Below are positions 661 to 64,000 of a stretch of DNA of 64,000 nt, in pieces (positions within the stretch are counted from its first letter, which is position 1; the number at the start of each line of letters is the position of its first letter). The position numbers were made by a program, and so were the translations under genes. Under the pieces are notes generated by a model. That model had not been told where the DNA came from. It did not search any database and saw only the letters and a program-made list of their open reading frames with translations. This DNA comes from Ascidiella aspersa (Eukaryota), in the NCBI GenBank assembly GCA_963924565.1, contig OZ004611.1:22692001-22756000 (forward strand), written 5' to 3'.

Positions 661-1207
661 CGTGTGTTTGTCAACCCAGGACCGACACCTAACCAGCAAA
701 AATAGCAGAATTTGCAATCGACCCAGGTCAGTTTCGGAAAACGTGATATAGCGTCCTGAATGTGGCCTACATTGGAGCAAAAGCAAAGACGGATAAGGTA
801 TACCGTTCAGCAAATTCTTATAGGCACAACTTTTGTTTAGGGAGCCCCCCAAGGTTCCAGTGTGGAAAACAAAAAGGTATTAATTATTTCAAGGTTCACC
901 GAAAGCCTTCGACAGACTTGGCGAACCAGTCAATCAATGATGCAAGCAAGGAAGGACAGAAAAACAACTAGTCGTCGACACTTTAATGCGTGACTCAAAA
1001 ATCTGATAAGCGTAGGTCGCAAAGTTCGTCTTACCAGGAAAACTTAGCGCGAAAATAGAGCATATACTTATCTAATATCGTTAAGCGAGCACTGGTCTAA
1101 CAGTTGAACTGCTTGTCTCGGCTTATGTATCATTTCTGTGCGACGAAGAAAGCTGAAATAACGCGGTAAAACTAACATAGGCAAAAACGCTTTGTTTTCT
1201 ATTAGAT

Positions 1208-15578: not shown

Positions 15579-18500
15579 ATGAAGTACACATTGGAAGACA
15601 ACGATAATGACGGCACTACGTTCCATTCGCAATACAACAAGAAGGAAAGCTATTCCAACGAAGCGTTCACGCACGAAACAGGTTGGAAATTTTTTTACTT
15701 GAATTTACATTCTGCGTAGAAAGCACGACGGTTTTGGGTTATTTGCAAGCTTGATAAAAGGCCTGTCAACATAAACAAACACACTTGTGAATAAATGGGT
15801 AATCAATGGTTTAGCAATGTGTTGTAATGAAATTTGCAGGGTTGTAATCACTTAAGACAATAACTCTTCTTAACGTTTTATTTTTATGACAAGGACATGG
15901 CTTGAGGTTGACTTGCTCTAATTATGACATGACTGGGACTTGACTTGCGCAACTAATGACTTGGACTTGACTTGGTATTTATTCAAAAAGACTTGACTTG
16001 GACTTAACTTGTTTTACAAATGACTTGACTGCGACTTAAGTCATTTTAAAATGACTTGTTCACGACACTGGAAATTTGCATGTGTTTCGATGTGTGTAGC
16101 CTTTGTTGGACGCAAAACTGTGGTAGGAAACGCCCCGCGGCGACTTATTGTATAATGTATTTGCAACACCTATACTCGAAATAGTAGAGAGAAGTGACTT
16201 TGCACTCTGGCCATAAACTTGTAATCAGATGACTCAGCGCGACCAGCAACGGCTGACGTAGTCCAACTATAACAGATCGCCTTGTTAATCAAACAGGACA
16301 CGTAAAGCCAATATTTTACATCAGGTCAAGTCAGAGCGTTCAAATTTCTAGACGGCTTTAGGAAAGTTATTTCTTTGTCTTACGATTGTCCGCAAATATG
16401 GGCGAACCAATGTTAAGGCCAAACAATGACCTCTCACATAGATTTATGGCACCGGAAAATGCTCAAATGCTTCAGTGTGAATTTAATGTTTTGTTTTCAT
16501 GGACGATTTCTGCCTTGTCGGCAAAACATACTAATGTAGTGTGGTTCTTTAATGTCGAAATTGTTATTATTGTGAACCTATTCTAGAAAATCTAATGAAG
16601 GTTACGAATCTTGTAATTTTCAAAATATTAATAAAATACTTAGATTTCCTAATTTAACTACTTCTCTTGCTACTACCTTACAATATAGTGTATGTCAACG
16701 GCTGACTATTTAGCGTAGGGTTACCATATACATCAGGATCTTTTCTGGCAAGTCTGGAACTTTAGTGCTACACACTTTGTATCCGTGAGGAATTTTTTAC
16801 CAATTAAGTTTATATGGTAAAAATAGGAAAAAGTCGTTTGCCTTCAATAAGTTGAAGCAATGTATACTTACGTAGCACTTTATTGGTGCTGTTAAAAGTG
16901 GTTATCCATCCTGTCATAAATATGTCCGGGACTTTGCCTGTCCAAAAATGGCAGCCCTAATACTATAGCACCTTAACTTAAATGTTTGATTTAACACATT
17001 TACCAGAGCAAATAAGCTTGTCTCTCTGCTATCCGAAATGCCCTATTTCAACATCTGGACACAACGTTTTTTTCTATGGATATTCGAAAAAAAAGTTTTT
17101 CTAACCAACGTGTTGTTTGTCAAACAGAATTCCGCGATGGGGGCATTACTGATGCTAACGGAAAGGGGTAAGAACTTTGGTTGTCACCTTTCTAAATCAG
17201 TGTGTCAGTGGTACTGCGACTTATTTAATATAGCAAAATGCCTATTTAAAAATTGAAGAATACAATCCATTAAAAAGATTGTTTCGCGTCTTTTTGAACC
17301 GTGGTTAATTTGGATTTTTTGGATTAGAAAAAACTATAGCAGAAGTCAGATAAACATAATCATATCGCACACAGTATATTTATTGGTTTACATGTTTAAA
17401 ATAAAAACAATTTGTTCGTAAAGCGCCTAGTTGTCGATCTGCTTGTTAATAACGTTCCCTCAACTAATCCGACAGAAGCAAAAACGCGGTATATTTTAGT
17501 ACACAATGCCAGTCGTAAAGGTGACTTTACAGCCGTTACGACAAGTACCGTTACGAGGAATAAACCGGTCGCAAAGCAGGCAATGCAAATTTGCTTTTCC
17601 GCGTGCTCAAACTAAGCGATGTCGCTTTGTTATTGCTTCTTATTTCTTAACTCTTTTGACGACTTGCTTCCGTTTTAGGCAGAGATCTTTGGAGGAGGTA
17701 GTTGCCAAGCAACGACGCAAGAGCAGCAAGTAAGTGTAAGACTTCACTTCGTTGCCCATCCTTTAGGCCAGAGCTTCTTAAACTTTTTTATTTTGGTGTT
17801 GTTCACCCCTAGCATATATCTCCAGATTCCATTCACCCTTGTCTCATGATAGGATAAAACTATCTCGTCTATATATAACAGCACAAAATGAACACCCGGA
17901 ATATCCGCCCTGCTCGCAAGCTATCATCCATTTCTGAGGATTCACCCTTATTCACCCCTTTTGATTGGTTCACCCCTGCAAAAATTTGTTTCACCTTGGG
18001 GTGAACCATTCACCTGATTAAGAAACACTGCTATAAACTTTCAGGACAAATTTACCTTTAACCAATTGTCTCGTCCAAACGATTTTTCAACTTTAGTAGA
18101 AGCCTTAAATTCGGTATTTCCCCAAAATACCACATGACTATAATGATTATAGTTATTATTACTTGAATCAATTCATTGACATGTTTTAGTACTGTTTCAA
18201 CTACCTTGTAGGCCTGGTCCTAAATTTATGAAAATTGTATTTGTCTGCTATAGAAAACACAAAAAGAAGAAGAAAAAGAAGAAGGGCGGAAAAAAGAAAA
18301 AAGAGGAGAAATTGAAGTTGGAACAAGTATCGTTTGGCCAACTGGTATGTTAGAATATTGTGTTACCTCGTGTTTAGTAACTTGTGTCCGTATAACCTCA
18401 TCGCTTATAAAAAAATATATATTTGATTAAATATTTTTGCGGATAATCATTTGCATAACTCGACCGACACTAGAAATTATATCATTTACACCTTTGTCTT

Positions 18501-21500
18501 TATTCGAAAAATTTCTAGGTCGTTATTTGACGTTTTAACTACAGGTTCGAAAAAGGGACAGTTAATTTCCTTTGGGTTTGTTGCAGTTTCGTTATGCCAA
18601 CTGCTACGATGTGATACTGATGGTGACTGGCACTTTAGGGGCGATGGTACACGGAGCCGCCTTCCCATATATGATGACAAGTAAGGCACTTATAAACAGG
18701 CGTTTCGTTATAAATTCACGCCCGGGTAGCACAATGTTATTATTCTAAAGTGAAAAACATGAAAGGGCAAGTTTTGTAAAACTACCAAACCCGGTTAAAA
18801 CTCACAAACACTGATTTGTTTAATATATGAAATAAGCCTTTTTTGCAACACCCAAAAAGCGTAAAATGTCATTGAATACAGCGATATCCGATAATATCGA
18901 ATCGGAGCCGATACCCGGCGCCAAGTGGTAGTATCGATACTCGTCCGATATTAGAGTGGTATCGTTGCCGATCCAATAATAAACTAATATAGGTGTTTTA
19001 GCCATGATTTGTCATCCAATGCAGCAATTACTAACTTACAAGTTATATTCATTAAAAATGATAGTAGGTTAACAACTTATAGTAATGAAATATCTACAGA
19101 AAATTTAACTTAATAACCTGGGAAAAATTATCCTTGAACGTTTTAATTTAAGCAATTCCGTTTATTATAGTTATGACGTCATTGTGATTGGGTCGAATAC
19201 TTGTTGTTTAAATATCGAGTATCGCTTTTGGGATGAAATGTCAAGTATCGGACAACCCTATCATTGACCATCTTACAGCGTTAAATAACGCTTATTGCTT
19301 TATTTACAATAAAAATCCATTTTTAAAGTTCATAGCTTCACGGTACGGTTTTCGTTGGCAGTTTTCGGCCAGATGATTGACACCTTTATCAACTACAGCG
19401 TTTGCACGCAAGCGACCAACTTTACCTGTACACAGGAGGAAATCGACAACTACTACAACACAACCGGCATTGACCCGGACAACGAGACAAACCCATTGGT
19501 GTAAGTTAGCCAAAGCGGTTTTACGAGACTAGTTAACAGTATAGGACGCACAAGAATCTTTGGTTTGCAATTCAATAAATAACTGATTTTGTAATAAAAA
19601 CGATCTTATTTGACAAGTAGGGAAGGAAACCGTTTACGAAGTTAACCAAAGCAGTAACGACGAGACTAGATAACAGTAGGACGCAAAACAATCCTTGGTT
19701 TAGGATTCAATAAAAGCCTGGTTTTGTAGTAAAAGCGATCTTATTTGGCAAGTAGGGAAGCAAACGGTTTACGATTTATATGGGAATCAATTTTAAGTTT
19801 GTTACAGGTGGTGATGATGGTAAATTTAATGTCAATCATTAAAAGATTTTGTTGGTAAACTTCCGTTCAGCTTAATTACTGATTAAATACGTTTTTCTGT
19901 TCCTTCCGTTCCAAAACAAAGTTAATTTGTTATAGTTTTCGATAATTTCGAGGTATCTCTCCATTTTTGTGTGATAATAATAAGGCAACAAAAAAAATTT
20001 GCGGTTTACAGATATCACCGATTATATAAGCCTAAGTTGAACAAAATAGATACGCTGTATATTTTCTAAAATATATATAAGTATCTCATTGTGGGACGCA
20101 CAAAATTTGCAATAAAAGTTGGTCGCGAACTCTGAAAGCTTAGAAAGCACTGTACTAGAAATTTGGTAAAACAAAAAGGATTTAACAAAGAAGTTGATTC
20201 GAATTGGCACTGAGGTAGGAAGCATACTATAGTTGGGGACTTCTAATAAGTACAATTAGCGTTCTCTAACTTTTGTACAAAATGTTGTGCTGTTGGACTT
20301 AATATTTAGGTTCCTTCCTGAATGCACTTTATGGTTTCAAAACGAAGTTATGGTAAAATTTGTGACTCTGCTGATTTTTTGTTAATGTCTATAATCGTTT
20401 AAATTTGATCAGCACGCATTTACGGTGCGTTGTTAATTGCTTGCAGGCCAATTGATGTGGAGTACGAACTGACAATTATCAGCTACTACTACGTTGGAAT
20501 TGCCTGTGCTGTAATCGTGTGTGGATATTTTCAGGTAAGAAACCTACTTCAAACATGTGAAACATGCAAAAAGTATATTTAGATCAGTGATACGACTAGT
20601 TCCAAAAGCAGAAAACTACTAGCAAGACTAATATTAGTTCTCCGTGGAAATTGAGACATTAGCCCCGGGTGGACTAGCCTAAATCGACAACGTCACACCA
20701 TTTTACACTTATGTATGCGTAGCGTAAACCTTAAGAAAGGTCTACCCACGGTGGAATTCGAACTCCCGACCTCGGCAATTCCGGGTAGCCGCAGGTGATA
20801 ACCTTTTGTACTCCTTCAGGTCGGCAACTGGGTGTTGGCTTCCACGAGGCAAACGCGAAAGATCCGCGAGCTCTTCTTTCGTTCGATCATGCGCCAGGAG
20901 ATCGGCTGGTTCGACGTGCACCACATGGGCGAGCTCAACACAAGGATGAACGAGTGAGTGCAGCAGCTATTAATGGAACCAATACGTGTTAGACGCGATA
21001 CATATTATGGGCTACGCTTGGCTCGTGCGGGTTAAAGTGCATATGACGGCTGTTTCTGACCAAGTTACTCTGTAGTGTGATTCTGCTGCAACGGACTTTT
21101 CATTCAAAACAAACAATCTTTAAATTTGTGCCAGTTTGACTACATTCGTCAAATCGGTTGAGTTACTTCCATTAACAAACTAATTAAATTTCTTCAATAT
21201 TTCCACTATACTAATAGTATTTTACCGTAGCTATTAATAAGACGCCCGAGTATTTTGTTTTTACGCCTAACATATACTGTACTTGTCTCTTTCCAAGGGT
21301 TTTTACTACAGACTTATTAAAAAGTATTAAAAAAATCGCCCAAGTTAAGAAACGGATTAAAGGTAAAATAGGTCGACTATTTAAAAACCAAAGTGTGATT
21401 TGAATAGCGTTTCAAATTATGGTTCTTAGTTAGCAACATAATAATAAAAAATGCTCTTGGATTTCTAGCGACGTGAACAAAATCAGCGACGCCATTGCCG

Positions 21501-24500
21501 ACAAGTTCAGCGTGTTCATTCAGCGCATCACCACGTTTATCGGGGGCATCATAGTGGGCTTTATTAATGGCTGGCAACTGACACTGGTCATCATGGCAAT
21601 CAGCCCTTTGCTGGGCGGAGGCGCAGCGCTCATGGGACGGGTGAGTGTAGCGCTCATGTGACTGATATTGATATCTATTAGTGTTAATAAGTCGAATTTG
21701 ATACAGGTATAAATATGCTATTGCTACCAGGCATATGGTAGGACAAGGTTGCCTGAGTATGGACTTGGGGATTACATCAACGTGCCATTAGGTAGCGCCA
21801 ATTCCTAATTATTTTTTGAAGCACCCAATGGTAGCCATCATTTTAACACAAAAACATTTCAGTAGGCTGACGGCGTTTTTACAACATATCAATCTAAAGA
21901 AAATAGGGGTGTTTTCTTGGTGGTTTTATTATTTTTATATCTGAGTTATTTCATATTTGTTGAAGTTGTATAAAATATTTGTTGAAGTTGTATAAAGTGA
22001 GGAACTATTTGTTGCAACCTACATTTTGGGTTATTGTGACAAAAAAATGGACTTACCATTACCTCTTTTTAAGAAGCTAAGATTTTGTTATAGTTTAAAA
22101 GTTTTCAACTAACAAATTTTATTATGGTTGGTTTTAAATTTTTGATGTATGACGTAAAACATTTTATACGGTTTCCCTATCCATAAAATACGTTAAGAAA
22201 TGCACCTGGTTAAAATGGATCACCGTATTAACATGTTTGTAAGAAATATTGCAAATGCAGGTAAAACTTCACTTAACGAAATCCATACCTGTTCGAATTG
22301 AAACAAAATTATTGTTTAAAATTCCACTAAAAAACAAACGAGCAAACAGACAAGATTTGGCCTAGGTCGTATGTGTTGAAAGCTATCAACACAGGCAGAA
22401 TATTTGTATAATTTACAGTGTAAAAATATAGACACAACAAAACTAAAGTTCCAAGACAGTCGCTCTTTGCGACGCACTTGTCCTGTTAAATTAAAAATAT
22501 TAATTTTCGCTTACCACAGCAAATTCGTTCTAAGATTCTGTGAAATTGTTCTAAATAGGCTAGTTTTAAACTTATGTGAGTGTAGCAGGTGGAGTTAAAG
22601 TTGTGTTTAATGCTTGTGGTACAAATTGATCTATTTAAAACAACGGATTCTTCCTGTCCCATTTTGCGAATCACACTGTCCCCTCATATGAAACTCTGGT
22701 TTCTAAAGACGGGACACAACAACGTTTTTTCTAAGACGATTTTATAAAAAAAGTTAGAACGTTAGAGGCAAAGTTATAAGAGTTTTTTAAGCGAAAAGGG
22801 CAGAGGTATCAAGTAGGCATGATATTATTCAAAATTATTGTTATAACTGAGAACTACAATCATTTGAAAAATACGTGTCCCATCATGGGCAACCTTCCCC
22901 TATACTGGTAGTAAAAATAAGATATCCGGCAATTGCTTATTTTATCCTATGTTTAAGCTACGTATATACAGGATGCCTTTATCAGGGAATGCAACAAGAC
23001 GTTAAACGTCACACAAAAAAGGAGAAAAATATGCGATGACCAACGAATTCCTTATATTTCCTGATACAGTATAGATAGCTCAAACGACGGATAAAATAAA
23101 ATAAAGTAGCGGAAGAGTTTTGATATAGGTGTATTCCATGGTGAGAAACCAAACACGGGGATTTTTATTTGAAATTTTTTGTCAGAAAATTCTGATATTT
23201 TTATTGAACTTTATCATCCACCAACGTTATATTAAAACTGCGGCTCATTGGTTACTGTGGCCACTATGTGTTAATTAGAATCTTTTTTAATAAATTTTAT
23301 TGGGCGCCAGGTAGAATAACCAAGACTCAGCTGCCTAGCGTGTTAAAGTGAGCAAACTAGAACCCCCAACTATTATTTGAAATTTACTTGTAGTTTGTGG
23401 CCAACATGACGAGCAAAGAGCTAAAGGCCTATGCTGCAGCCGGGGCCGTGGCCGAGGAAGTCTTGTCCTCCATCAGAACGGTGGCTGCCTTTAGTGGAGA
23501 GAAGAAAGAAGTCGAAAGGTGGAGCTCATAGTGATTTGGAAACTCAATTTTGGCCGCCGTTGCACATAATACATAAACTGTTTTAAACATTGTATACTAA
23601 ATATTTAACGATATGATTGTTGTTTTGCTTTAATTAAAATCCCAGGATAAAAATGACTTTTCTGGCAGATATGGCCAAACTGTTAGATGAAGGCAAATAT
23701 TTAAAGTTGATGTAGATGTACATCTAACATTTAAACCAGGGGCGTGCAACCTTTCATACTGCCGGGCCAAATATGGGTATTCGGTTTAGACCACGGACCA
23801 CTTGTATATCTCGTCGTCTACCTGTTAGTGCAGTGGTCGGCAAACTTATTGTTGCGGCCCAAAGTAGTCTTTTCAGAGCTAAATAAAGGCCCACTACGTA
23901 AAACCACTACGAAAACAGTGGCGGATTCAGGGGAATATTTGATTTTAAGGTGAAATATTCTACGGCGCTTAATGGCCCAAACACTGCCATGCTATAATAT
24001 AAAACATTATATAAAAAAATAAAATTTGCGTTTACATAGAGTTAAAGTTGGCAAAAAATATAGTTTAAAGGCTCACAAGACCACATTTGGCACGTGGGTC
24101 TGTCCAAGCTGAGCCAATTTAAAACATTATATGCCACACCAATTGTTAAAATAAAGTGCAATGAATGTACTTCTATCAATCGGCCAACAACTACGGTTCA
24201 TGACAAGACCAAGCCATTCAAAAATAACTCGCGGTCCCCAGTTGGCCTACGACTGTGTTATAACTACCGTACCACAAAAAAAATTGCTCACACACGTTCG
24301 TTGAACCGAACGAGCCACCTTAAAAGCGACGAACTTTCTCAGCTGTGGAAACTTATTTAGATCGAGATGTTCGCGGTAAAAAACTACTTTTTAGCTGCGC
24401 TGCGCAGAGAAATTTGTTTCTTTTTTATAATTCACATGAACATTGAAATTGAATATAAAACAATTACATTTTAAATGAGTGAAAAAGATCAAACGGACAT

Positions 24501-27500
24501 TTTTACTATGCTTTCTTTGCATGGCCATAAGTAGCTATTCGAAAGAATTTCAAGAACAAATAAATTGCAGCGCTCAGTGCAATTCACTTTCACACAAAGT
24601 TGTACACTTTCAGCAACAGCATCCAAAACACATTTTGTAGTTTTATTTTGTTAGCAGGTAACATTCTATTCTAATATGTTAGCAGGTCACATTCTATTCT
24701 AATTCTAATAAACTAAAAATTTACATGCTATATAAGGCGACCTAGACTAAGGAACTGTCAGAAAGTTTTAATATTTTAACAGTCACCTGAATGTTTAGTG
24801 GTGCGGGCCAAAAACCAAAGCACACCGCGGGCCACATATTTTGGTTACGCGGGCCGCAGGTTGCACGCCCCTGATTTAAACTATATGTTTCGTGTTTCGT
24901 TTATTAATGCATTTTATTGTGAGAAAACAATAATGGTCTTTCATATAACCCAGCATCAAACTAGTTTGTCTTGTGATGTTGTGTTGCTAGATATAGTACT
25001 TAAAAATAAAAAAATATCATCGTTTCCAACCCTAGTTTTACCAATTCTGTTCTGGCCTCTAAAGCAAATTCTCCCGCATGACACAAATATAAACGTTCAT
25101 CCATTTTACAAATTTTGACAATGATATGGATTCTCATGCGGCTCTTCAAACCTCTTAAATTTCATGATGCAGCCTACGTGCTGAAAACTTTACACAGTCC
25201 CGGCTAACGACAGCGACGAAAAGTATCATGTAACTTTTTTTTTTTATTCGTGCAGATACGGAGAAACGCTTCTTGAGGCCGAAAAGCAAGGAATCCGAAA
25301 GGGAATGACCCAGGGCTTTTTCGCTGGCTACATGTGGTGCCTTATCTTTCTCAGCTACGCCCTTTCCTTCTGGTACGGTTCCTCGCTGGTATTTGACGAA
25401 AGCAACGGCTTTACTGCTGGTAACTTGATGACGGTAAGCTTTTTACTATTTAAAGCGATTTGTTTAGGTTGGAAAACGATAGCTTTCACGCTAAACAGCC
25501 TCGGTTGTATTGGGTTTTGTTAAAAACTTTAGATAAACTATTGGGTGAATAGTTTTTTGTAATTTTGCTAATTGCAATCGAATATAATGGCCTGCATAAA
25601 TTTTTATTTAGATGCTCAATCAGAATTGTTTGTGTAATCCACCAATAGGTAGGATTTTTCTGTTCTTTAAACTGTTTCCAAAATTGTGTACTGTCTGTAA
25701 TCGTCATAAACAATGATCCAAAACAACGAAAACACTATGTCTTAAAGGTGTTTTTTGCCGTGTTGGTCGGAGCCATTAACCTGGGACAAGCCGCACCCAA
25801 CCTGGAGGCATTTTCAGTCGGGCGATCAGCCGCCGCCCTCGTGTTTGACATTATCGAAAGGGTATTTATACACATTTTGCTCTTAGTTTACTTTGCCCCT
25901 AAAAAATGACACACTATTTTTTCGCAACAATGATAAAACACAACTCATTTATTAACGAAATAGCAATTAAATAAAACACTCAAATTTAAAACAAAGTCAC
26001 ATTATTATTTATTGATTTAGTGGAAATTTGCGTGTAGACCTCTTTCTATTGTGGTCCTAAAGATGCGTACAGTGGTTCCATTTAAAGCTGTACTTTGTTG
26101 GTAACATATATATATTTAACCGGAATGTTATGTTAACAAGAGTGAAAGCTAGACTAACATAAGTGATACTTACGCATTGTAAACGCCACGCGTTCGTTCT
26201 TAATAAAGCCCACTATTTACTGGACGCTGTTGCAACAACTCGAATTTAGCGAATAAACCGGACAGTAGAGCAGGGCTATGGCTAAAAGGTTAAAACACTT
26301 GTCTTATCTGCTGCCGCACATGTTGCCAGAAATCGAAGATCGACCCTTTCTCCGAGTCGGGACACGTCCTGGACAAGGTGGTCGGCGATATCGAATTTCA
26401 CGACGTCGACTTCTCCTACCCGAGTAGGGACGATCAAAAGGTAAACCGCTTGTCGAGCGTTATGTTTATTATCCATGCTCGCTTTGCGGCATAACCCTTT
26501 TATCGGTTCGACTGTATACCCAATTGGTTAACCCTTTTTTCGTACAGATTATCAACAACATGAGCCTCGTATTCAAGGCGGGCGAGACCACGGCTGTCGT
26601 GGGTCCGAGTGGAATGGGCAAAAGCACTATCCTGCAACTGGTTCAACGTTTCTACGACCCCGACAAGGGCTTGGTATGTCCGGGCACCTTGTAACGCTAT
26701 CTATTTACACGGACATTACACTAAACACGACTATTTAGCGCAGCAAGAAAAAATAAAGCTGACCCGGCGGCCGCGACGCGCAGGTTAAACATTAGTGTGT
26801 TCGATTCGGTGTTTAAATGTACCTTTCGTGTACCTTCAGAGGTTAAACAAACAGACTTAACGTTTCGCGAACACTAACATGAGCGGAGTTACCGAAGTGG
26901 TCGGACTTTGATTTAACCATAGTGCCTACAGCGCCAACAAATGGAGGATTCGCTAATACGCATGAATTCACATGGCCTTCCGTTATTTTATAGAGATGAA
27001 GGAAGGCCATATGAATTTGTGCGTATTATATGCTGTTTAATTTATGTAGCTCGATTTATGATAAAAGGAAAGTAAACTTGTTTGGCAGGTTTATGTATGT
27101 GTTGCGTTCTAACTTTAGCAATTGTGTCAACTCTATAGAAGGGAAAGTTGATTAGTTGTGTACACATGTCACCATTTTTTAATTTTTAAACAAGCAGTTC
27201 GACTGTCTCTATTCTGGGAGGTTTAAACAAAGATACCTTTTCGTTGTTGTGCGTTATGTTATTCTCAGTATAGGTAAAACATATATGCATTCGCTTAGCC
27301 TGGAAATGCAGCAACCCAGCATGTCTGAAGTACATATTTTTATGCTGTTTTGAAAAATTCGACCGGCCATCTGATGTTTTGGGTATAATCTGGCAAACTT
27401 TAGGGTGGAAACAACTTTCCAAGCTCCCACTTAAAATAATCCTTCGAATTTTTTTTTTTTAAATTCAATGCCTGCCTGACGGTGGTCTTACCTGATCACT

Positions 27501-30500
27501 GCGGGTATAGTATCCTACCTTTTTTCACAGGAAAAACTTTTTTTTATGTTGTGCAGTAAATACTTAAATTACATTGACATATTGAAACTTTACAGTTTAT
27601 ACTACCACTATAACACAAAAAAGTAAAAAATGTTAACTTCTGCCGATGCGCAATTTAACTCTGGTCCTATCTCCAGTGGCGGCATCAACTCCTCAAACGG
27701 AGATTAGCTCCGAGAAATGGCTCTAAACATTACTGACATTTGAGTTATTCCCTATCTAAAATGGTTTCGTGTATGGCTGCCGATTGGTTATACGAATCCT
27801 CTATTTTCCGAATTATCAAACAGTTTGGCGGCACAATTGACAATCTCTCGAGGTACACTAGTGTGCCGCGGCAAAAAGTTTGGGAATCACTGCCTTAGTT
27901 AGTTAACAAAAACTTGATTCTAATTCAAGGTGACCTTGGATGGGCATGACCTGCGCACGCTGAAGACGATGTGGCTCCGGAAGATGATCGGCATCGTCCA
28001 GCAGGAGCCGAGTCTGTTTGCCACCAGCATCGCCGAGAACATCCGATTCGGACGCGAGGGAGTCACGGATCAGGAGATTGAGAATGCGGCGCGCGCCGCC
28101 AACGCCTACAACTTCATCATGGACCTTCCCGACGTGAGTTCGGCCTTAGATTGAAGTGCTTGTTATATGAGCCGAAAATTGACTTCTTATTTTTGTCGCT
28201 ATTCTTTTTCGGTTTGCTTTGGTTTGTGTTTGTTTTGGTTTTGTATGTTTCGAACCGATTTTTTCTAGAGCTTTATCTGAAAAAGTATACATCTTAGAGT
28301 TCCAAAATTTTTAGACATATCATATGTAGATGCGATTTAAAGTTTTAGGGGTCTGCCCCTAGTTCTTTTTTTTCTTTTTTTATAAAACGCTTCACGAGTT
28401 TGCGTGCTTATGCGATCCTCGACGCCTAATTCCTGTAGCCCGTTAGGGTTTGGCTGAAGCTTGTTGCTTGTTGTTATTTCCATTTCTGGTTATAGCATTT
28501 GACGCAACGTCGAGTGTCTGCCAAAAGTGGCTTCAACCAAAGCTCTTTTTGGAAAGTTTTGTTTTGCAAACAATCCAGATGTTTTGTTTGTTTATTCTCA
28601 ACACGCGTCCCGCTGTCCCCTTTGTCGGGTTATAGGTATAAACGTTTTCATGATTAATTTTCATTATTTATTTTTATTTTTTGCATCCCTTAATTCTTGT
28701 CCTTCAAACTAGGTATGGCTGGTGCCATTGTGGTTTACTTTTTAATTTTGAATGTGGGCACTGACTGTTACGTAACTTAGTTTCCTTCAATGCATTTTTG
28801 TGAAAAACTGGTCGCTGCGTTTGACGTCAAGAGTGTTTACAGTTGCTAATGCCGTTTGCTAACATTCGTTCGTATGGTTCTTGAATATTAGTTTATTGTT
28901 CGAATTTTGTCCAAAAACGAACCAAAATGTACAGAAATTCAACACCGACGTTGGCACCGGCGGCGGTCATTTGAGCGGCGGCCAGAAGCAGAGAATCGCC
29001 ATTGCTCGTGCCCTCATCAGAAACCCCAAGATACTTCTGCTCGATCAAGCTTGTTCGGCGCTGGACATGACAAGTGAAGCCATGGTTCTCCAAGAGTTGG
29101 ACAAGGTAAAGTTTCTTACGCTTTCTATCAGTAAAACTTACTGTATTGCCAACCCATAAAGAGCCCGAAGACGTAAACTGGACGTCTTTTGCCAGTGGTT
29201 TACAATAATTTTATTTACCTCTAAGAGCGCAAGCCGGTCACTAAACTTTTGAAAGCTTACAAAATAATTAAAATAATTATGTCTATTTTTTTTTTAATTT
29301 TCTACCTGTGGACCCAGATCCTCATTATTCATTTATCAACACCCCATGCATTGAAGTTTTGAAGGTTGACGAACGTACCGTTAGCAACATAAAAAATAAC
29401 TGAACAGAAATCAAAATTTGGAAAGCGAATTTTCCTAAATATGCACTAAATAATGCTGAACGTTACAAAATTGCTATTTTTTGGTTTTATCATTATAAGG
29501 CCCAGCATTCCATGTCAAAAAGCAATTGCCCAAAAAAATTGTATTTTTCGCCTAGCAAATATAAACCTGACCTAAAGAAATTTAATATGACGTCACGCAG
29601 GTACGTCACGGTCGAACCACGATCATCGTGGCCCACCGGCTTTCGACGATCCGTGACGCTGACGTCATAATCGGAATCGAGCATGGCAAGGCGGTGGAGA
29701 GGGGAACACACGAGCAACTGATGGACAACAATGGCGTTTACTTCACACTAGTAACGCTTCAGGTAACTATCCTACAAGCGTTGCAATGCAACAAGGATTC
29801 AACGCTAGTCTAAAGTCTACTTCGCGTAAAAATTGGTTTGGCACAAACGCCAAGGATATTGACCTATGAAACAAAATAAAAAGGCTTAATGAAAAATGCT
29901 GATGTCCTGATGGCCAAGGTTTATATAGAATTCGTGATGTCAAAGACAAAAACACTTGAACTGGTTAGGCTGGTTGGTTTAACACAAACCTTCGATGTTA
30001 TTGACCTATAAAACAAATGAAAAATCCTAATGTCCTGTTGGCCAACGTTTATAAGAAAATCAGTTACCTTTGCACCCTAAACTATCGGTTGGCTTTCACA
30101 TGCTTTCGATTGGTCGCCTTTGTATCAAAGTTGCTAGAATAGCAGCCCATGGAAATCCATTTTGGCTTTTTTTCGAAAAGCGTTTTTGTATTGATATGTT
30201 ACAGACAACGAAGACAAAGAAAATTGGAAACGGTAAAGTCTCTGGTGATGCGAGTGACAGTGACAGCAGCGATAGTGAAGGAAAGAATGGTGAGAAAGCA
30301 GATTTTACGACAAAATAAAATGTCAAGATTATAACTAGCTCTTTGCAGAAGATTTAGCGAAAACTTTCTATTTTTATGTATATCGTATTTTTCCACAGTG
30401 TATAGTCCACAGTACTAGAAAAGTTGAATTTTTAGAATTCTGACTTTCTTTCTTAAAAAATTAAAATTATAACTAGCCCCTTGTCGAAGGTTTAGGGAAT

Positions 30501-33500
30501 ACTGTCGCGATTTCTTTTCTTTTTTTTCTACAATTCTGTTTTTGTTTCTGAAAATTTTACAATTGCACGCCTCTCAACGTACTTCCAAATTATTTAGTCT
30601 TGCCGATCGACCAGGGACCGGAAGGACCGCTTGAAAAGGTTACAGACATCACTCACGGACATCGCAGAAGCTTAAGGTAATATTGTGTTTACAATACATA
30701 GAGTAATCGTTTTAAATTTTAGTCACACGTTATATTAGGAGTGCCTTCACAAGAACACTTACTTGCTACTATAGAAAAAAGTTTTTGAAATTAATCCGTG
30801 TTTGCAAAACAAACCAATGTTGTACACAAAGTTTTTGGAAATAACTTAAATGCCAGTCAAGTCATTTGTAAAACAACTTAAGTCCAAGTCCAAATCAAGT
30901 CATATTTAAATGTGAAAGTGTATCCCATTCGAAGTCACGGATATAGCAATTCAAGTCCTTAAGTTCCAAATAAATGTTAAATTTTAAAAATCGAGAAACC
31001 TTTCATATAGCCTGAGCTAAAAATACCGGTATTCGGAAAGCGTAAAATTTAGCGTGCAAGCGTTTACAAGCCAAATTTTGGTAAAATAAGCAAGTTTTAC
31101 AAACAAATACTAAAAACATAACGCCAAGTTAAGTCATTTTGTCCGAAATACTTAAAATCATTTAAAATCAGTGACCGAAATGCACTTAGGTCAGGTCATT
31201 GACTATAATCATTACAACACTGCAGATAATCGTTTGGGAAAGTTTCTAACTTTTACCAAATTTTAACTATGATATTTTTCCAATGCGTGGTTAAACCGGA
31301 ATTTTATCTTTCAGACGAAGTCTCCGAAAGCGCAACGTGTCTCAGTTGGAAGGACCCGATGATATGGCTGCAATGGGCATCACAACACCAAACCCGCCGC
31401 AGAAGTACAGCCGAAAGTCAAAGAAAGATTACGATTCGGACTCGAGCAGTGATGTAGGAAGTTAATTATTTAAAAGCGGGTGTCATTTATGGAAAATGTG
31501 GATTTAACCCCCCAATTTTGCCAATACGTTCGAGGACATAAAGATAGGTTGAAATATACGCATCCTTAAATATTATTCGCAAACAAGTTGGCATAAAATT
31601 AAACACTTATGGCTAAACAAAAAGGTTCATTTATATAAACAATAATTGTACGTATATTTGAGTTTTGTGTTCAATCAGAGCCATACACTCTGCATTTTAA
31701 GGGTATTATATTTATCACTTTTCGTTTGTTTTAAAGCAACGGCATTTTAAGAAACAAACCTAGATTTTGTAATTTAAAAAAAAACTTTTTTTGCTATACT
31801 ATATATTTCAAAAACTGAACATTATTTTCCATAGGCATTTAATAACAAAAATTGATATGACATTGTCCAAAACATATACGAGTGGCTAAAACGCTTACTT
31901 GCAGAGTCTAAATGGTTGTGTGGGTTCAAATGACCACGAGTTTAAATATTTATATATTTTGGTTGTTCTGATTTAACAGGATTCTGATTCCAGTTCAGAT
32001 GAGGAAGAAGAACTAGAACCAGCCTCACTGGGTAGGATCATGAAACTTAATGTGACCGAGTGGCCATACATTCTTGGAGGAACAATTGGCTCGGCTATTA
32101 ACGGCGCCATTCAACCTGTTTTCGCCATTCTCTTTTCTGGCCTGCTCGGGGTAAGAATCCCAGTCTTATTGAAATATAGTGCGTCGGCTATTCCACGGGC
32201 GTGAGTTCGACGCTCACGAAAGTAAAGTTGTTTTCGCAGTAAAATTTTCTTTACACATTTACTTTCACTATATATGTTCCCGTGGTGGTTGCCGATAAAA
32301 TTTGAAAAAAAATACACGTTTTTTAATCTTATGGTACCTTGATATATTGTCAAAACGTTTTTAAACAGCTAATGTCGATTTTAATGAATATTATGACTTG
32401 GATAGTTTTGAATAGGCTATCGTTACTATTGGAGATAATGTGTGCAAAATATTTAGTCGAAAATATTTTTTAAACAATTTAATCAAAATCGTTTGCTTGG
32501 GGCATGATTACCGTCTTTGTTTTCGTCATTTGGCACATTTTTATCACAAGTTCGAAACTATCTTGATTTAGGTATTTTCCGATCATATGTTTCTGTAGTG
32601 TAGGTTTACTTTTTTATACAAAAACTCGAAACAAAAATTGTACGGAAAAAACGAGAATGACTAAAATAAAACCATGTTCTATAGTTATATAAAAGGGCGT
32701 ATCTTTATGGAATCCCAAGCCATTGACAAGCAGGTTTCTGCTTGTCGATTACTGTTCCGTTGACGCATATATAAACAAAAACTTGTTTAAAAACCCGAGT
32801 GATTCATTAGAACTGACAATTCTAGAATGGGCGAAATTTATATCCCTTTAAAAAACGTCTGATCCTGTTTATACTTGGCTTTTTCAACTTTGAGTTCTAT
32901 TGTATTTTCTAAAGTTAAAAACGTTCAACAAATTTTACAGGTTTTTGCCTTGCCAACAGTAGAACAACAGCAACAAGGAGTTAACCTCTACTCAATTATC
33001 TTTGTCGGAATCGCCATACTTTCATTCATCTGCTACTTCCTTCAGGTTAGCAAATTGCATTTTTTTTGGCAGTTTCGTGTAAATCAACAATGCTTGTGAA
33101 TATCGAAGTTGCCTTGTGTTCAACTATAGCATTTACTCTGCAAAACGTAAAACACGCTTAAATATCAAAACAAATTTAGAAAAAAGCCAAAAACAGTTCC
33201 GGGTTACATACATTTAGAATAGTGTAGTTATGGCAGCTACAGAAAACTGTAGCGATTTGAAACGTTTGTTTAAAGGGTTCTCTAAATATGCATGTGTTTA
33301 GAATTACATGTTCGCCAAATCTGGAGAAATCCTAACACGCCGTCTAAGAAAGATGGGATTCGAATGCATGTTAAGGCAAGACATCGGCTGGTACGACGAC
33401 AACCGTAACAACCCTGGAGCACTTTCGGCGAGACTGGCTACTGACGCTGCTATGGTGAAAGGGGTAAGTTGGCATTAAGTTAAATGAGAGGCTGTATACT

Positions 33501-36500
33501 ATGTGCATACGACCGGGTCGATAGGCAGGTAAACTTAAGACGTTTTTATTGTAACAACGTACAATGCACTTAAACGAATGTTTGTCTATAATTATGATAT
33601 GTGTCAGAACGTGGTGGGATTTTAATATCAGAGCAAAAAAAAAATGTCCGTTTTGAATCACTCCCACTGCAGCATGAATATATTTTTTGAATGAAACTGC
33701 ATCCTTAGATATACATACCGATTTACAGCACGCAGCGTTCCACATTTCGTTCTATTCATTACCTCATCCTTGGTGAGCATGTAAACTTGAAAATATAATC
33801 AAATCTGGAGACAGGATAGATTTCTATAGATAAAAATTTGGATTCGAAATTTCCAATCACTTCGTTGCATAGCACATCGGTTCTATTCCACTGAACGCGC
33901 GTCAGGTTTTACCGCTTAAAAACCTCTTCAGCAATTTTCCAACTGTATTGATAAAGTCTATGCCCCGTTAACATCACGCACACAACAAAATTATATTCCG
34001 TTTCCAATGCCAACGATTCAATTTGAAGCCGTGATTTAGAGACAGCTATTTCACCGCGAAATGAACATTTTTGCATGAACGCGCGGCGGTCATAACCATC
34101 TACAGGCCTATTCAGTAACTTGACCGTTTCACTGACAGGCTCTATACCTCGATAAAATTACGCACACAACAAAATTATTTTCCATTTTCAACGCCGACGA
34201 TTCAATTTCGTGATTCAGAGAAACTTGCTATATCATTACATTGTTCTATTACAGGCCACTGGTGGACAAATCGGTATAATTGTGTCGGCGATCGCCAGCA
34301 TCGGCAGCGCTCTCATCATCGCCTTCTACTTTGGCTGGAAACTTGCCCTGGTCGTGGTCGCCTTTCTCCCCATGATCGTCATGTCGGGACTCATCCAGGC
34401 AAGGCTGCTTACGGGAAGCGCTAGAAGGGACAAGGATTCGCTAGAAGAAGCTTCCAAGGTTTGGGCGTTAGGGAAGATTTCTCCATTTATCCATATTTGG
34501 CCTTTATTTAATGTGTAATTGAGGTTGGGTGACTTGACATAGACTGAAATGCGTATGCTGAATAACATTTGTTTCGTTTCTAATATATTTCCATCTGACC
34601 ATTCTCATTAGGTCTTGTGTTATTAAGTAAAAACTGTGAACTATTGTTGTAAATTGCCACGAAAATCTGCCATTCGATAAAAGCCCTAAACACACGAAAA
34701 AGTATTACGCCGCACAACGTTCAATAAAAAAAAACATTGCTATCAGTCCTTTTAGTTCCCGCCATGAGAAATTTTTTTCTTACTCATACGAATATTGTTG
34801 CGCCATATAGTCGCAAACAAATTAGTCTATTGTAAACTCTGTATGCTTCCCATCTGTTTCTGGCGATTTAATATTTCGGTGGGCTCGCGCCCCAATTCCT
34901 GAGAATATTCTTGACCCGAGCCAATTAAACAAAATTCTTCGAGTTTACTGCGGAGGCCAAAAAAGCAATTTCATTGTAGTTAACTTGTCTTAAAACATAT
35001 CACAAGTATAACAGACTAAAGCTTATTTAAGGAACGATAATGAACGTTCCTCATTGTGAACTGTTAATAGTAAAATCTAATTTTTTTGTTGTGTTTATTT
35101 TAAAGTATACATTTTCAAAATGTCTGCTTTAAATAATGTCGATGCTATTCAAGTATTTCCCCTCTGACACAATTTTATTTTTCGTTTTCCATGAAGGTTG
35201 TGTCGGAAGCGATCGAAAACATACGCACCGTGGCTTCTCTGAACAAAGAGGAATACTTTACTTTCGAGTACAACAGCGTTCTGGCGAAGCCTTACAGGTA
35301 CAGCGAGTGATATGTTACATCGGCCAATGTACCGCCCACTTTTTTTTAGCTTTTTCTTAGTTTAATTCACCAAGTTGCATTTCGCTTTGAACACAAAAAA
35401 TACTCCTGAAACAACGTAAAGCAAAATCCATACTGTAATAGTCAGTTTGTACGTTCTGTTATTCTATAAAAAATGATTCACTCTTGCGGTTGTAGAAATA
35501 CTCCGTCTAAATGTGTCGATTCAAAAACTGTCTCCCTATAAGAGTTTATTTTTTTTTGTAATCCTTGAGTTTACAACCAAACAATAAACTGTATTGTCAG
35601 TTTACAACCAAACAATAAAGAATGTATGCGTTTAGAACGCGACCACCATTTCTGAGATTTAAGTTTTTGTTGTTTTTTATTCATTTTTGATATTTTTTTA
35701 CAGCGAAGGCAAGTACAACTCCCGCGTGTACGGAGTTACTTTTGGAATCGCGAACTGCATCATATTTTTCGCCTACGCCGCCTCGTTTCGATTTGGAGGT
35801 TATTTGGTGGCACGGGGCGAAATGGAATTCCAATATGTCTTCAGGTGAGCGTAACCTATACCCTGGCACTAAATACCGAATGAAATGAAACCATAAAAAG
35901 TATAAATTGGGTTATTTAGTGGTTAGATTTTATATAAAGGAAGTAAGTATGTTGAATAGTGACGAATGGCCGTCATCTTCAGAATTTTTCAAACAAAAGA
36001 AATGTTGCAAAGATGTCAAACTATTCTCTTATCGGGTGAATTGGACGCGTGAAGTTTAAGTCAGATTTTCAGACCATTTTGTTCATTGGTTCAAGTAAAC
36101 AAACGACTTAGCCCTTTTTTGAAAGATCACTTTTTTACAGCATAACCACGAGAAACACATAATTAATCTCAAGTCGTCAACATATTTGGAACCAATGCAA
36201 ATATTATTGCCCGTGAGAATTTTTTTTCGGTTTAATATATATCTCTTTGTTTCTTCAGGGTGTTTTCTGCCATTGTGTTTGGTGGAACGGCGCTCGGAAG
36301 GGCTTCCAACTACGCTCCCGATTACGCTAAAGCCAAAACGTCGGCCGCCCGCATTTTCAAACTCTTAGACCGCGAACCTCCCATCGACAGCTACAGCGAA
36401 AAAGGAGATAAATGGGTAAGGCTGCGAACTGTGGCGAACGTTCGAACAAGTTGTTTGGGGACGATTTTGATGGAAATATGCAATCATGCTAAATATACTT

Positions 36501-39500
36501 GAAGTTGATTTTTCCGAAAATCTTGAAAATGCAAAGTTTGCATTGTCTAATAAAAATGCCAAAAGCTAATAAAAGAGAGAAAAATAAAACGAGAACAAAA
36601 GCGTATTTTGGCACAATACTCAATATATTATCAACATTGCAATACTCAATTTGAAACATTGGACAATAGTAATGACGTCATTTGGAATTTTGCCAAAAAT
36701 ATTGCGTTTCTTTATTGGAATGGCATACCAGGTTTCGGACAACCCTTGCAATAAACACGAATGTGGTGCAACCACAACTTTCGAATACGTGTTTCATGTC
36801 CTTTTAACTTCTATAGCCTTTGAACCGCTTAAAATTGGTTGTACTGCGTACCTAAAAGCGGTTAAATCCTCAACGTTACGGACCTCCCTCGCTTACAGAG
36901 CGACTTCAAGGGTGAGATCGTCTTCAAGGATTGCCTATTCACCTACCCTACCCGGCCCGACATCACGGTACTTCGCGGCCTCAACGTTTCCATCGGAGCC
37001 GGCGAGACACTGGCCCTTGTCGGCCAAAGCGGATGTGGCAAGAGCACAAGTGTTCAGTTGCTGGAACGCTTTTACGATCCCGACGGTGGTGTAGTGGTGA
37101 GTGACAGCAGTTAGTAGCAAGTAGCGCTGCGCAGTCGGACTCGGGACTCGAGTAAAACTACATAATACTACCCGAGTCTCGAAAGTGATGAGGCAGTAAA
37201 CCGTAAAATGTAAAAGTGTAATAGCAAATGGTGGAATAAATTCCAACCTTGTACAGTATATTGTGGGTAGATGAATTACATGACACCCCTAAGAGTCGAT
37301 TGCTGAATATCCACCTTATTTTAGTTGCGTAAATGGGTGAAATACAGGAAATAGAGTCAAAGCCATGCTGTAATGATGACGCGTGAACCAGGTCGGCAAG
37401 ATTTTTCCAATAAGACTTTATTAGTTCTAAAACAAAAATACTTTTCTGAAAACCTGCTGATTTTGGTCCAACAAATGTGAAACTATAATACAGTATAAAT
37501 ACATACGAGAGAAAGGCGCCAAAAAGTTTTATTTTTTTGTACTTTGTACTTTGGAAAAAGTTATTCTTTTTTAATTACATAGTAAGAATCAATTACCCAA
37601 ATGGATTCCATGGACCTCATAGTTTAAGATCCCCTAACTTAGTCATCATTTTTATGCATTGATTTAGGTTTCTTTATATCTTGCAAAGTATAAACTCTTC
37701 CATTAAAAAACTCCCTTCTCTGGTAATATCGCACAACACCGATCCGACAGTTTCGCATTCACTTCGCAGTTGGTCGACGGACACGAAACCTCCAAGACCA
37801 ACGTTGGTTTCCTGAGGGGCAAGATCGGCATCGTGTCTCAGGAGCCGGTGCTGTTCGGTGGATCGGTGCGCGACAACATTGTGTACGGCGACCAGTCGCG
37901 GGTCGTGCCTCAGGCTGACGTGGAGAGGGCGGCCAAGCTGGCCAACATGCACGAGTTCATCTTGGCGCTAAGAGACGTAAGTTTTGCCCTTTTGCAGTGT
38001 TGTAAACAAGCCATTTTGACATTTTTTGAAAGTCCCAGTCAAGTCATTTGTAAAACTGACTCAAGTCCAAGTCGAGTATTTTTGAATATATAACAAGTCA
38101 AGTCCTATTACAGCAAGTCAATTTCAAGTCAAGTCCTTAATTGCCATAAACATTAAAAGCTACCAAAATTGGTAAATTCATTCGATTTTATGAGCAATTA
38201 ACTCAAGTAAAAATATGTTAAAATTTTTCTTAGGATAAACCTCAGTAAATATAACTTTATAAAACTATACTGCTGTCGGTGACCTAACCAAATCTAACGG
38301 CGACACATTTTGGGTCGCGCCACACGGGTTAAGAAACACTTAAACGGACATGGTATGCTTACTATCATACGCGATGTATACGTAGTGATGAGTTCATGTT
38401 TGTTTCTGTGCGTTTGCAGGGTTACGAGACCAGCGTTGGAGACAAGGGTGACCAGCTGTCTCGTGGTCAAAAGCAACGAGTGGCAATCGCCCGTGCTCTG
38501 GTCAGAAGCCCGAAGATTCTTTTGCTGGACGAAGCAACATCTGCACTGGACACTGGTGATTACAGATATTCGATTTTTTTAAACTACAAAGATTACATGT
38601 TAACAACAGTGTCAGTTGTTCCTGCAAAGTTTATTCGTCAGGATAACGTTGATTTATATATTGTTTATGGTTCCCAAAACATATCTTGTAAATATATTAA
38701 TAAATGTATTTATACATTGATTTAACAATCTTGACATTCTCATAAGGCTTATATAAGGACTATATTTCCAGTTTTTAATTGATATAGTTGCGGTTTACCT
38801 TACACGGACTTTAAATTGTACTTTAGGGCAGCAATGTTTACTTTAAATCACGGCCACCGGGTCGGAGTCGGAACTCGGGACTCGTGTAGTCTGTTTGTTT
38901 TGCTGGAGTCAGACTCGGGACGCGAGTAAGGCCAGGTAAAATTACCCGAGTCCCGAGTCCGACATGCGCATGCGCACTACTAAATTTTAAAACTGATATG
39001 CCTACCAACTGGAAAATTGTTAAGGTGGTATAGCATATGGTGGAATATTTTCCAACTATGTTCTGTGAGTGAATGAATTATTCGACACCCCTTTAGGTGG
39101 ATTGCTGAAAAAGCCACGTTATTTTAGTAACGCAAATTGGCGGAATACAGGCTGTAGAGCAGTGATTCTCAACCTTTTTTAGAGCAAGAGCCGCATTTCA
39201 AACCTAAGGTTTGCAAGGAGCCGCATAAAAAACAACAGTAGGCATATAATCAAAAAACATTAAGAAAGCAACAAGAAAACAACAAATATACATTACGCTA
39301 GCCTAGGCTAACTAATTAACAGTGTTTGCCATAGCTTATCGATCAGGACTAAATATATTGTGACGTAACAAACCACAAAATTGTTTTAAAGAGCTGGATG
39401 GAAGTACCCGGTAACATTAGTGCTTCGTAATCGGGATCCTTGCTGATGCAACTCATTAATTCTTGATTTCTCTTACTTACTTTGTTGCAATTCTGCTACT

Positions 39501-40326
39501 TCTAACTAATTTTTCACTCGGTTAGAGAGCCGCAAAATGTTCAGCTGAGCCGCATGCGGCTCTGAGAGCCGCGGTTGAGAATCACTGCTGTAGAGTCAGG
39601 ACCGGACTCAAGACTCGACGAAATCGCACATTTGACCGGAGTCGGACTCGGGTTATTTTTAACCGACTCCGCAGCCCTGCTTTAGATTATCAGAAACCCA
39701 GGGCTCATTTGTTTTTGTGCTTTTCAGAAAGCGAAAAGATTGTACAAGAAGCGTTGGACCGTGCCAGAGAAGGTAGAACTTGTGTGGTAATCGCACATCG
39801 ATTGTCGACGATACGTAATGCCAACAAGATCGCCGTCATCTCACAAGGTAATGTTGCTTTTCTCAACAGATTTTAAAATAATGCAATGTAGACTAAATTA
39901 CCAAATTGTCTACCAAGGGCGAAATTAAATCATACATGCTTTCCTGTACCCTACCTACTGTACCTCGCACCCGTGTCAAATAAATCGTACCGTTATAGGA
40001 GGCGTGTATCTCAACTTTGAACAAACGTTTCGTTATATAACTAAACCTATTTTATTTAGTTTTTTTTCATTTGTTGAACCTTGATTAATTATATTTACTA
40101 ATATTGTTATAGGCTAACCGACAATCTTACGTACACACATTAAACTATATCAATACACAATGTAGGCCTGCTTGTTTTTCCACAACCAATCCGCATATCT
40201 TACAATTATAAAACAGTGTTTTCCTCCTTTTTAGGTCAAGTCATTGAGCAAGGGACGCACGATGAACTTATGGACTTAGAGGGCGCATATTACAAGCTCA
40301 TCACCACGAATGCTTCCCTCAGTTGA
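15579..40326 (+). CDS. ABCB11: ABCB11 (bile salt export pump)-like full ABC transporter, ~1399 aa, 32 coding exons
   Basis: Exons: 15579-15681, 17128-17167, 17679-17729, 18254-18344, 18587-18680, 19362-19500, 20447-20534, 20820-20953, 21469-21640, 23394-23518, 25256-25433, 25748-25861, 26330-26440, 26548-26673, 27930-28133, 28935-29105, 29601-29762, 30205-30289, 30598-30676, 31315-31453, 31980-32150, 32941-33045, 33302-33463, 34255-34458, 35197-35297, 35704-35844, 36259-36415, 36899-37096, 37770-37976, 38420-38555, 39728-39847, 40235-40326. These total 4200 nt with consistent phases; the first three exons are less certain. Walker A motifs are GPSGMGKST and GQSGCGKST. Segments closer to ABCB11 than ABCB1: [69 protein letters not shown]. 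Confidence 0.9.
15837..16070. mobile_element. MITE with internal (GACTT/AAGTC)n arrays
   Basis: Termini cagggttgta / cacgacactg with perfect 8-bp TSD gaaatttg (15829-15836, 16071-16078). Further family members lie at ~30815-31222, 37995-38210, 53085-53472, 54440-54554, 61190-61380, 62175-62481 and 63353-63530. Confidence 0.8.
16716..16959. mobile_element. TAGGG-terminal MITE
   Basis: Inverted termini tagggttaccat / atggcagcccta. Confidence 0.55.
17769..18030. mobile_element. hAT MITE (ttcaccc family)
   Basis: Termini cagagcttcttaa / ttaagaaacactg; repeated ttcaccc motifs; degenerate TSD ctttaggc/ctataaac. Confidence 0.65.
18880..19260. mobile_element. Partial MITE with CGATAC/GTATCG repeats
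   Basis: Clustered ccgata/gtatcg motifs ending in tatcggacaacccta. A similar end (cggacaaccct) occurs at ~36736. Confidence 0.45.
19522..19774. repeat. Two-copy ~120-bp intronic tandem duplication
   Basis: acgagactag.taacagta...ggacgca...ttcaataaa...cgatcttattt..caagtagggaag.aaac.gtttacga occurs twice. Confidence 0.8.
23737..24873. mobile_element. Non-autonomous hAT element, 1137 bp
   Basis: Perfect TIR caggggcgtgcaacct / aggttgcacgcccctg; perfect TSD atttaaac (23729-23736, 24874-24881). Contains a further hAT-like end cagtggtcggcaaact at 23831. Confidence 0.92.
26954..27028 (+). other. 75-nt intronic stem-loop
   Basis: taatacgcatgaattcacatggccttcc pairs with ggaaggccatatgaatttgtgcgtatta, plus an inner G.U-rich helix. 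Confidence 0.6.
38849..39679. mobile_element. GGAGTCGG-repeat hAT-like MITE hosting a nested MITE
   Basis: Right end ccgactccgcagccctg; TSD ctttaaat/ctttagat (7/8). Homologous to the ~511-660 and ~37130-37365 copies. Confidence 0.7.
39160..39587. mobile_element. hAT MITE (gagccgc family), 428 bp, nested
   Basis: Perfect TIR cagtgattctcaacc / ggttgagaatcactg; perfect TSD ctgtagag (39152-39159, 39588-39595). Confidence 0.92.
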
Positions 40327-49915: not shown

Positions 49916-50039
49916 CGAACGATGCTCCCTTAACTATTTTTTAGCAATCTCGAGTCTTGGCTGATCTCTGTTGTCTAATATACAAGGCTACTTTGTTAAG
50001 AAAGTTTCAATTTACAGTGACTGAACGCTTAGTCCTACA

Positions 50040-51130: not shown

Positions 51131-51243
51131 CTGTACAGTATGACATATGAATGTATATACCATTTGAGTTTTGTTGTTTTGAAAATGCAGATACTAACAA
51201 GTCAAAACACATTCAAAACCAGTGCTTTGGTGCTTTTTCCACA

Positions 51244-63875: not shown

Positions 63876-64000
63876 GTAATTTAACTCTTTTCAACGTCTG
63901 GATCGGTTTGTTCGACTATTTTGCCAAACTTTGGTTAGTATTCACCGAATTTTGCCTAGCCCATGTTTTTCGTAACCTGCTTTGCTCATTTGCTAGACTT

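Follow-up and report, generated by a model that had tools for sequence, protein, structure and literature searches.

Glutamine as the likely ancestral Walker B residue in the degenerate ATP site of ABCB11

The ABCB11 locus of Ascidiella aspersa

The window analysed here is the whole 64,000-nucleotide stretch of Ascidiella aspersa DNA at positions 22,692,001 to 22,756,000 of contig OZ004611.1 (assembly GCA_963924565.1, forward strand), and it contains an orthologue of ABCB11, or BSEP, the pump for bile salt export. Within the first of the two ATP sites of this pump, the catalytic Walker B glutamate is replaced by glutamine, which, judged from its distribution among related sequences, is likely the ancestral form of the non-hydrolysing site of BSEP. 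The features of the gene are given below in window coordinates (NBD, nucleotide-binding domain; TMD, transmembrane domain; CDS, coding sequence). Statements taken from published papers refer to excerpts of those papers.

15579..40326, + strand: ABCB11/BSEP orthologue, TMD1-NBD1-linker-TMD2-NBD2; 32 exons, 4200-nt CDS, 1399 aa
26411..26428, + strand: NBD1 A-loop, Tyr473 retained (ATP binding at site 1); from gene model and alignment
26602..26625, + strand: NBD1 Walker A GPSGMGKS, Lys retained, Met503; from gene model and alignment
27999..28001, + strand: Gln546 (CAG), directly before the Q-loop Gln; E502 in human BSEP, S474 in ABCB1
28971..28985, + strand: NBD1 signature LSGGQ, canonical, belonging to site 2; from gene model
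29046..29048, + strand: Gln628 (CAA), replacing the site-1 catalytic Walker B Glu; M584 in human BSEP, E556 in ABCB1
29052..29054, + strand: Cys630, replacing the usual Thr two residues past Gln628; ascidian branch only
29634..29636, + strand: NBD1 H-loop His659, retained; from gene model and alignment
37022..37045, + strand: NBD2 Walker A GQSGCGKS, canonical, site 2; from gene model
38456..38470, + strand: NBD2 signature LSRGQ, with Arg1299 (R1221 in human BSEP, G1178 in ABCB1) completing site 1
38519..38551, + strand: NBD2 Walker B of the canonical site 2, catalytic Glu1322; from gene model
39787..39804, + strand: NBD2 H-loop, His retained; from gene model

Site 1 of ABCB11 is assembled from the Walker A, Q-loop, Walker B and H-loop of NBD1 together with the signature of NBD2 (PMC10638440), and four positions in it, namely the residue before the Q-loop Gln, the catalytic Walker B position and two signature positions, read E/M/R/E in human BSEP and S/E/G/Q in ABCB1 (PMC7544095). 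At these positions the window protein has Q546, Q628, R1299 and Q1301. The A-loop Tyr, Walker A Lys, Q-loop Gln, Walker B Asp and H-loop His of site 1 are all retained, and site 2 is canonical throughout. The changed signature and the lost catalytic Glu are thus paired at one site, as in degenerate-site exporters (PMC7756269), and the gene does not possess the two canonical sites of the ABCB1/4/5 type. The original prediction had placed the two Gln codons and the LSRGQ signature in one gene beside a canonical second site; all three lie in frame in a single spliced open reading frame (ORF), and the LSGGQ, Walker B and H-loop His of the second site are canonical. Beyond the four published positions, site 1 differs at 26614-26616 in Walker A and at 29052-29054 (Thr to Cys). 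The Walker A Cys of ABCB1-type sequences is replaced in every ABCB11 row in which the column is filled, by Met in most tunicate-clade rows and by Ala or Ser in vertebrate ABCB11.

The gene model was built from Ciona orthologues and tblastn matches, exons 1-4 and 18-20 being based mainly on splice signals and frame continuity. It has no internal stop, GT-AG boundaries at 31 of 31 introns and 77% full-length identity to the Clavelina protein P0016 (named BSEP), and it holds the (TMD-NBD)2 layout of a full transporter in a single intact frame, as expected of ABCB11/BSEP orthologues. Three reads of RNA run X8, of which about 6% was read, span the junction of exons 14 and 15, and the RNA reads in repeat-free bins come from one strand only. 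At the codon 29046-29048 the RNA depth is two reads, below the three-read threshold for listing differences, so the RNA alone does not confirm CAA. A contig of run X1 covering 28933-29531, which may be the second haplotype of the assembly animal, differs from the window at 18 or more positions, none of them inside this codon. Between 27925 and 29800, where differences are listed in full, all seven allelic differences in exons are synonymous; at least three further exonic differences are synonymous too, and runs X4 and X5 gave low-depth or unrelated pieces only. The gene is intact and transcribed. The original prediction would have failed had transcripts or orthologues shown GAA at this codon or had the gene been decaying. 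A sequencing error at the codon or a decaying pseudogene could appeal to the two-read depth; the unchanged CAA in the X1 contig, the intact ORF, the spliced reads and the synonymous variation speak against both, the Gln shared by orthologues already refutes them, and we regard such an artefact as scarcely credible. RNA editing back to Glu was set aside, as nothing in the reads suggests editing, and no such route that would turn CAA into GAA is known to us. At 38826-39700, 30560-31100 and 24500-25050 lie intronic high-copy repeats, where the read depth greatly exceeds that of single-copy sequence.

About 1.5 kb past the ABCB11 stop, a ferrochelatase (PF00762) occupies an uninterrupted 395-aa frame (41875-43062, + strand), its coding region being intronless in an otherwise intron-rich neighbourhood. 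It is followed by tandem copies of an asparaginase-2 (aspartylglucosaminidase-like) gene at about 44300-45930 and 51150-55100 (+ strand), between which lies a hAT-type transposase-like ORF (48644-49933, - strand) with weak DUF4371 and BED-finger matches. A gene with a Haem-NO-binding domain (PF07700), probably a soluble guanylate cyclase subunit, runs from about 58030 to 64000 (+ strand) and extends past the window end, and a gene at about 1200-5320 (- strand) has a Zona pellucida domain (PF00100) and a putatively transmembrane exon.

Orthology and distribution of the Walker B glutamine

Four trees agree in grouping the window gene with vertebrate ABCB11 and not with ABCB1/4/5, which bears out the predicted BSEP orthology. 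The main tree (27 rows, LG+G4, six site columns removed) leaves out redundant orthologues and long outgroups, all of which are present in two other trees, and its support is 100/100 for the ABCB11 clade, 94/96 for the tunicate branch and 100/100 for lampreys plus jawed vertebrates. Grouping tunicate ABCB11 with vertebrate ABCB1/4/5 was rejected by the approximately unbiased (AU) test (p 4e-18), and so was a single clade of all Gln-bearers (AU p 3.5e-6). One of the four, a quick tree, agrees with the others. Because the position of ABCB11 among the ABCB1-like groups varied between trees, the ABCB11 duplication is not dated. A representative search contributed 149 new rows, of which 144 were treed and five long ones dropped; those entering the ABCB11 clade were three jawed-vertebrate rows, one Styela row and one other row only. 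Clustering at 50% hides close members, so this search is no evidence that amphioxus or other animals lack ABCB11. From the ESM Atlas came nothing outside the family, and ABCB11 has been reported from sea squirt to human, with Ciona genes listed (PMC4458048).

The other six full-length ABCB genes of the genome fall outside the ABCB11 clade, and four of them, ABCB1-like, have both ATP sites fully canonical. Two divergent full-length paralogues (L015 and L034, G000:C6; L035, G000:C3 near 18.717 Mb) have the altered NBD2 signatures LSVGQ and ISVGE and retain the site-1 Walker B Glu; in them site 1 of this genome's pumps has partly degenerated a second time, independently.

Every tunicate-clade ABCB11 orthologue found carries the Walker B Gln. 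It is present in 11 of 11 proteins of one homologue search, a count that includes several models of the same two Ciona genes. Clavelina, a divergent Styela copy and the sequences P0017, P0168, P0307, L038 and L039 have it too, and it is encoded by both CAA and CAG across related loci. The lamprey sequences, which form a single 90% cluster, have it as well: the cluster to which P0022 (E/Q/R/E) belongs bears lamprey names on eight of its nine members and the Gln in all nine, and supplement 1 of PMC4458048 prints a Japanese lamprey sequence that shares it, without comment in the excerpted main text. Gln and Arg in both tunicate and lamprey orthologues uphold the earlier proposal that site-1 degeneration is older than vertebrates, and the lamprey Gln removes the accompanying claim that such a site is non-vertebrate. 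In one search, the 110 new proteins comprised 100 of type E/M/R/Q, seven of canonical ABCB1 type, two Q/Q/R/Q and one lamprey protein. LSRGQ, which had been thought unusual, occurs in 100 of 100 Met-bearing, jawed-vertebrate-type BSEPs among the matches listed (the named ones come from bony fish, amphibians and a bird, and the names shown include neither mammals nor cartilaginous fish), so that LSRGQ is the ordinary BSEP signature and the LSRGE of human and lamprey is the departure. PMC7544095 already notes Q at the signature end position of BSEP.

Wherever NBD2 of a Gln-bearing ABCB11 is readable, the signature has Arg, or Lys in P0006. The pre-Q-loop residue is more variable. Lampreys, jawed vertebrates, P0006 and the two deepest tunicate-clade sequences (P0307 and L039, which we would guess to be appendicularians) have Glu there; the window gene has Gln, as do Ciona, Clavelina and P0017; the Styela copy has Ser. 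This last sequence (P0251, Styela clava, named BSEP-like; S/Q/R/Q) sits on a long branch, its Walker A ends in GKTT, the context of its H-loop is altered, and it is either a minimal Gln plus Arg site or a diverging paralogue. The natural variants seen are S/Q/R/Q, E/Q/R/Q, Q/Q/R/Q, E/Q/K/Q, E/Q/R/E, E/M/R/Q and E/M/R/E. M584 is stated to be fully conserved among ABCB11 sequences (PMC7544095), and this Met is absent from the window gene. As read from the sequences, the Gln of tunicates and lampreys contradicts this conservation, at least as it is put in the excerpt cited, and Met marks the jawed-vertebrate type and not the ABCB11 family.

Outside ABCB11, few natural Gln sites were recovered. 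Among 150 representatives, the Walker B position is Glu in 132, Gln in two (both of the ABCB11 clade) and Met in two, and 14 are unaligned. A search with a 40-residue region returned 111 new proteins, mostly canonical ABCB1, of which 110 are canonical and one is not; it is weak evidence of rarity and served as a source of outgroups. Pattern scans, for which no control count of the Glu form exists, found four loci in 185,579 prokaryote genomes, one of them in a long open frame, and four loci in metagenomes, three of them ABCB11-like. The long prokaryote frame is an ABC exporter in a Kapabacteria metagenome-assembled genome (L044:2636, - strand), whose open stretch of 377 aa carries the Walker B Gln and whose signature is altered; the remaining three prokaryote loci are short or look frameshifted. 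The unassigned metagenome fragment L041:326 has the same Walker B Gln motif. The excerpt of PMC7756269 names human degenerate sites with Asp, Met and Ser, not Gln, and we found no published comment on a natural BSEP Walker B Gln, its presence in lampreys or an E-Q-M order in the open-access literature.

Order of the changes and function of site 1

The Walker B column requires two changes on the tree, the same count in three trees. With Glu outside the clade and the Gln-bearers not forming a single clade, the simplest order is Glu to Gln on the ABCB11 stem and Gln to Met on the jawed-vertebrate stem. We infer that Gly to Arg fell on the ABCB11 stem as well, before tunicates and vertebrates split, and that the ancestral site 1 was E/Q/R/Q. 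The pre-Q-loop Glu to Gln and the Thr to Cys changes would have followed within ascidians, the former because lampreys, jawed vertebrates and the deepest tunicate-clade sequences have Glu. The original suggestion that Q/Q/R/Q is an intermediate state therefore stands for the Walker B Gln, as a step from E through Q to M, and fails for the pre-Q-loop Gln, which looks ascidian-derived.

By analogy with human ABCB1 mutants, site 1 of a Gln-bearing BSEP would bind ATP without useful hydrolysis, the signature Arg would act as a spacer that prevents trapping or occlusion, and the canonical site 2 would drive export. ABCB1 with E556Q alone retains very little ATPase activity and shows no net transport, E556M alone locks the pump, and the four BSEP residues together restore activity; in simulations the signature Arg spaces the Q-loops and weakens ATP binding (PMC7544095). 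In human BSEP only site 2 hydrolyses, with ATP at site 1 (PMC10638440), and the function of ABCC1 is little affected by a Gln at its degenerate Walker B position (PMC7756269). Arg (Lys in P0006) accompanies the Gln in every case, and the two acidic residues are present in some of the proteins and missing from others, which favours a pump relieved by Arg and driven by site 2. We consider it moderately probable that this account holds as a whole, that is, an ancestral Gln, an ATP-binding, non-hydrolysing site 1, an Arg acting against occlusion and export through site 2.

Several points weigh against it. The rescue of ABCB1 used Met and two added acidic residues, both of which are Gln in the window protein (Q546, Q1301), giving it a different charge balance; simulations are the source of the Arg spacer role (PMC7544095); and the mechanism is carried over to Gln-bearing BSEPs by analogy, not biochemistry. 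The RNA support is thin, coming from about 6% of one run. As to ancestry, the ancestral states are change counts and not a likelihood reconstruction, the deepest tunicate-clade rows are long branches, and lampreys are the only jawless vertebrates sampled, with hagfish, shark and amphioxus ABCB11 outside the sample. That sampling, together with the single lamprey cluster and the single base change that turns Glu into Gln, leaves some room for separate origins of the Gln in tunicates and lampreys, from Glu or from Met. Such a history needs three changes against two and a motif that is rare elsewhere (110 of 111 canonical in the region search; four loci among the prokaryote genomes), and we hold it to be improbable.

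The main rival to a non-trapping site 1 is a lasting clamp, in which the Gln traps ATP as the laboratory mutant does, the NBDs stay joined over many cycles as if by glue, and only site 2 opens and closes. Substitution of Glu by Gln stabilises ATP-bound states, a lasting-glue role has been proposed for degenerate sites (PMC7756269), and the ATP modelled at site 1 of vanadate-trapped human BSEP (PMC10638440) fits a clamp as well as it fits the mechanism we favour; the window protein, moreover, lacks the two acids of the human site and keeps all ATP-binding motifs. However, trapping at site 1 stops transport in symmetric ABCB1, where the weaker binding brought by the BSEP residues allows it again (PMC7544095), and the signature Arg is retained in the window protein, which makes a clamp unlikely, if the most serious competitor. 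Slow but needed hydrolysis at site 1, with Gln as a half-dead state and Met completing the shutdown in jawed vertebrates, could draw on the retained H-loop His and on the very low residual ATPase of ABCB1 E556Q, as opposed to none in E556M. As that residual rate gives no net ABCB1 transport (PMC7544095) and the signature of the window gene is altered as well, we judge it very improbable.

A wider proposal can be made, to which we attach only tentative belief: the pump may have become asymmetric before there were bile salts, by a natural counterpart of the laboratory trapping mutation, Glu to Gln with a single suppressor Arg having been the minimal first step from a symmetric P-glycoprotein-like pump to one with a single engine, a state which tunicates and lampreys retain and which Met refined in jawed vertebrates. 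If it is true, the living series of variants is suited to testing whether a degenerate site releases or clamps ATP. A conserved natural Glu to Gln site would indicate that the standard laboratory 'dead' mutation is tolerable in the right context. The present distribution also corrects the published invariance of Met584, puts the steps of BSEP site formation in a probable order, names two single changes, Gln and Arg, as directly testable in human ABCB1 and BSEP, and points to a possible older, non-bile-salt job of the pump.

Comparison with known systems

Neither the gene family nor its tunicate orthologue nor the degenerate site is new, and the window gene is no new kind of system. What appears to be new is the Gln as a natural residue, its occurrence in lampreys and the order E-Q-M, as none of these was found in the open-access literature. 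Among engineered proteins, ABCB1 E556Q, E556M and S474E/E556M/G1178R/Q1180E alter the same four positions, and the natural combination of Q and R without the two acids is absent from the ABCB1 variants in the excerpt of PMC7544095.

Human ABCB11/BSEP (PDB 8PM6, 8PMD, 8PMJ) is an orthologue, and both proteins have a degenerate site 1 with the signature Arg and a canonical site 2. They differ in Q/Q/R/Q against E/M/R/E at site 1, in the Met of Walker A and in the Cys past the Gln. In a search of solved structures, the Clavelina orthologue matched human ABCB11 best (1578 bits, against 1446 for ABCB1). Of six positions that contact glibenclamide in human BSEP (PMC10638440), mapped here by eye, F83, F776 and S1022 are identical in the window protein, while Q76, L80 and N996 are replaced by F, M and Y. 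Invertebrates are not known to make bile salts and lampreys make bile alcohols, according to the excerpt of PMC2886068. As cargo we would guess at a sterol-like, amphipathic and possibly sulfated anion in place of a classic bile salt. Lamprey ABCB11 is likewise hydrophobic or aromatic at the positions of human Q76 and N996, so a sterol-type anion is compatible with these two changes.

Lamprey ABCB11 (Petromyzon, Lampetra, Lethenteron) shares the Walker B Gln and the signature Arg with the window gene; unlike it, the lamprey protein is E/Q/R/E, with Thr past the Gln and Ala in Walker A. Closest are the Ciona and Clavelina ABCB11 proteins (annotated BSEP-like), which have the same Q/Q/R/Q, the same Cys and the same Walker A Met at 71-78% BLASTP identity. 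To this group the window gene adds one more member, without substantive difference.

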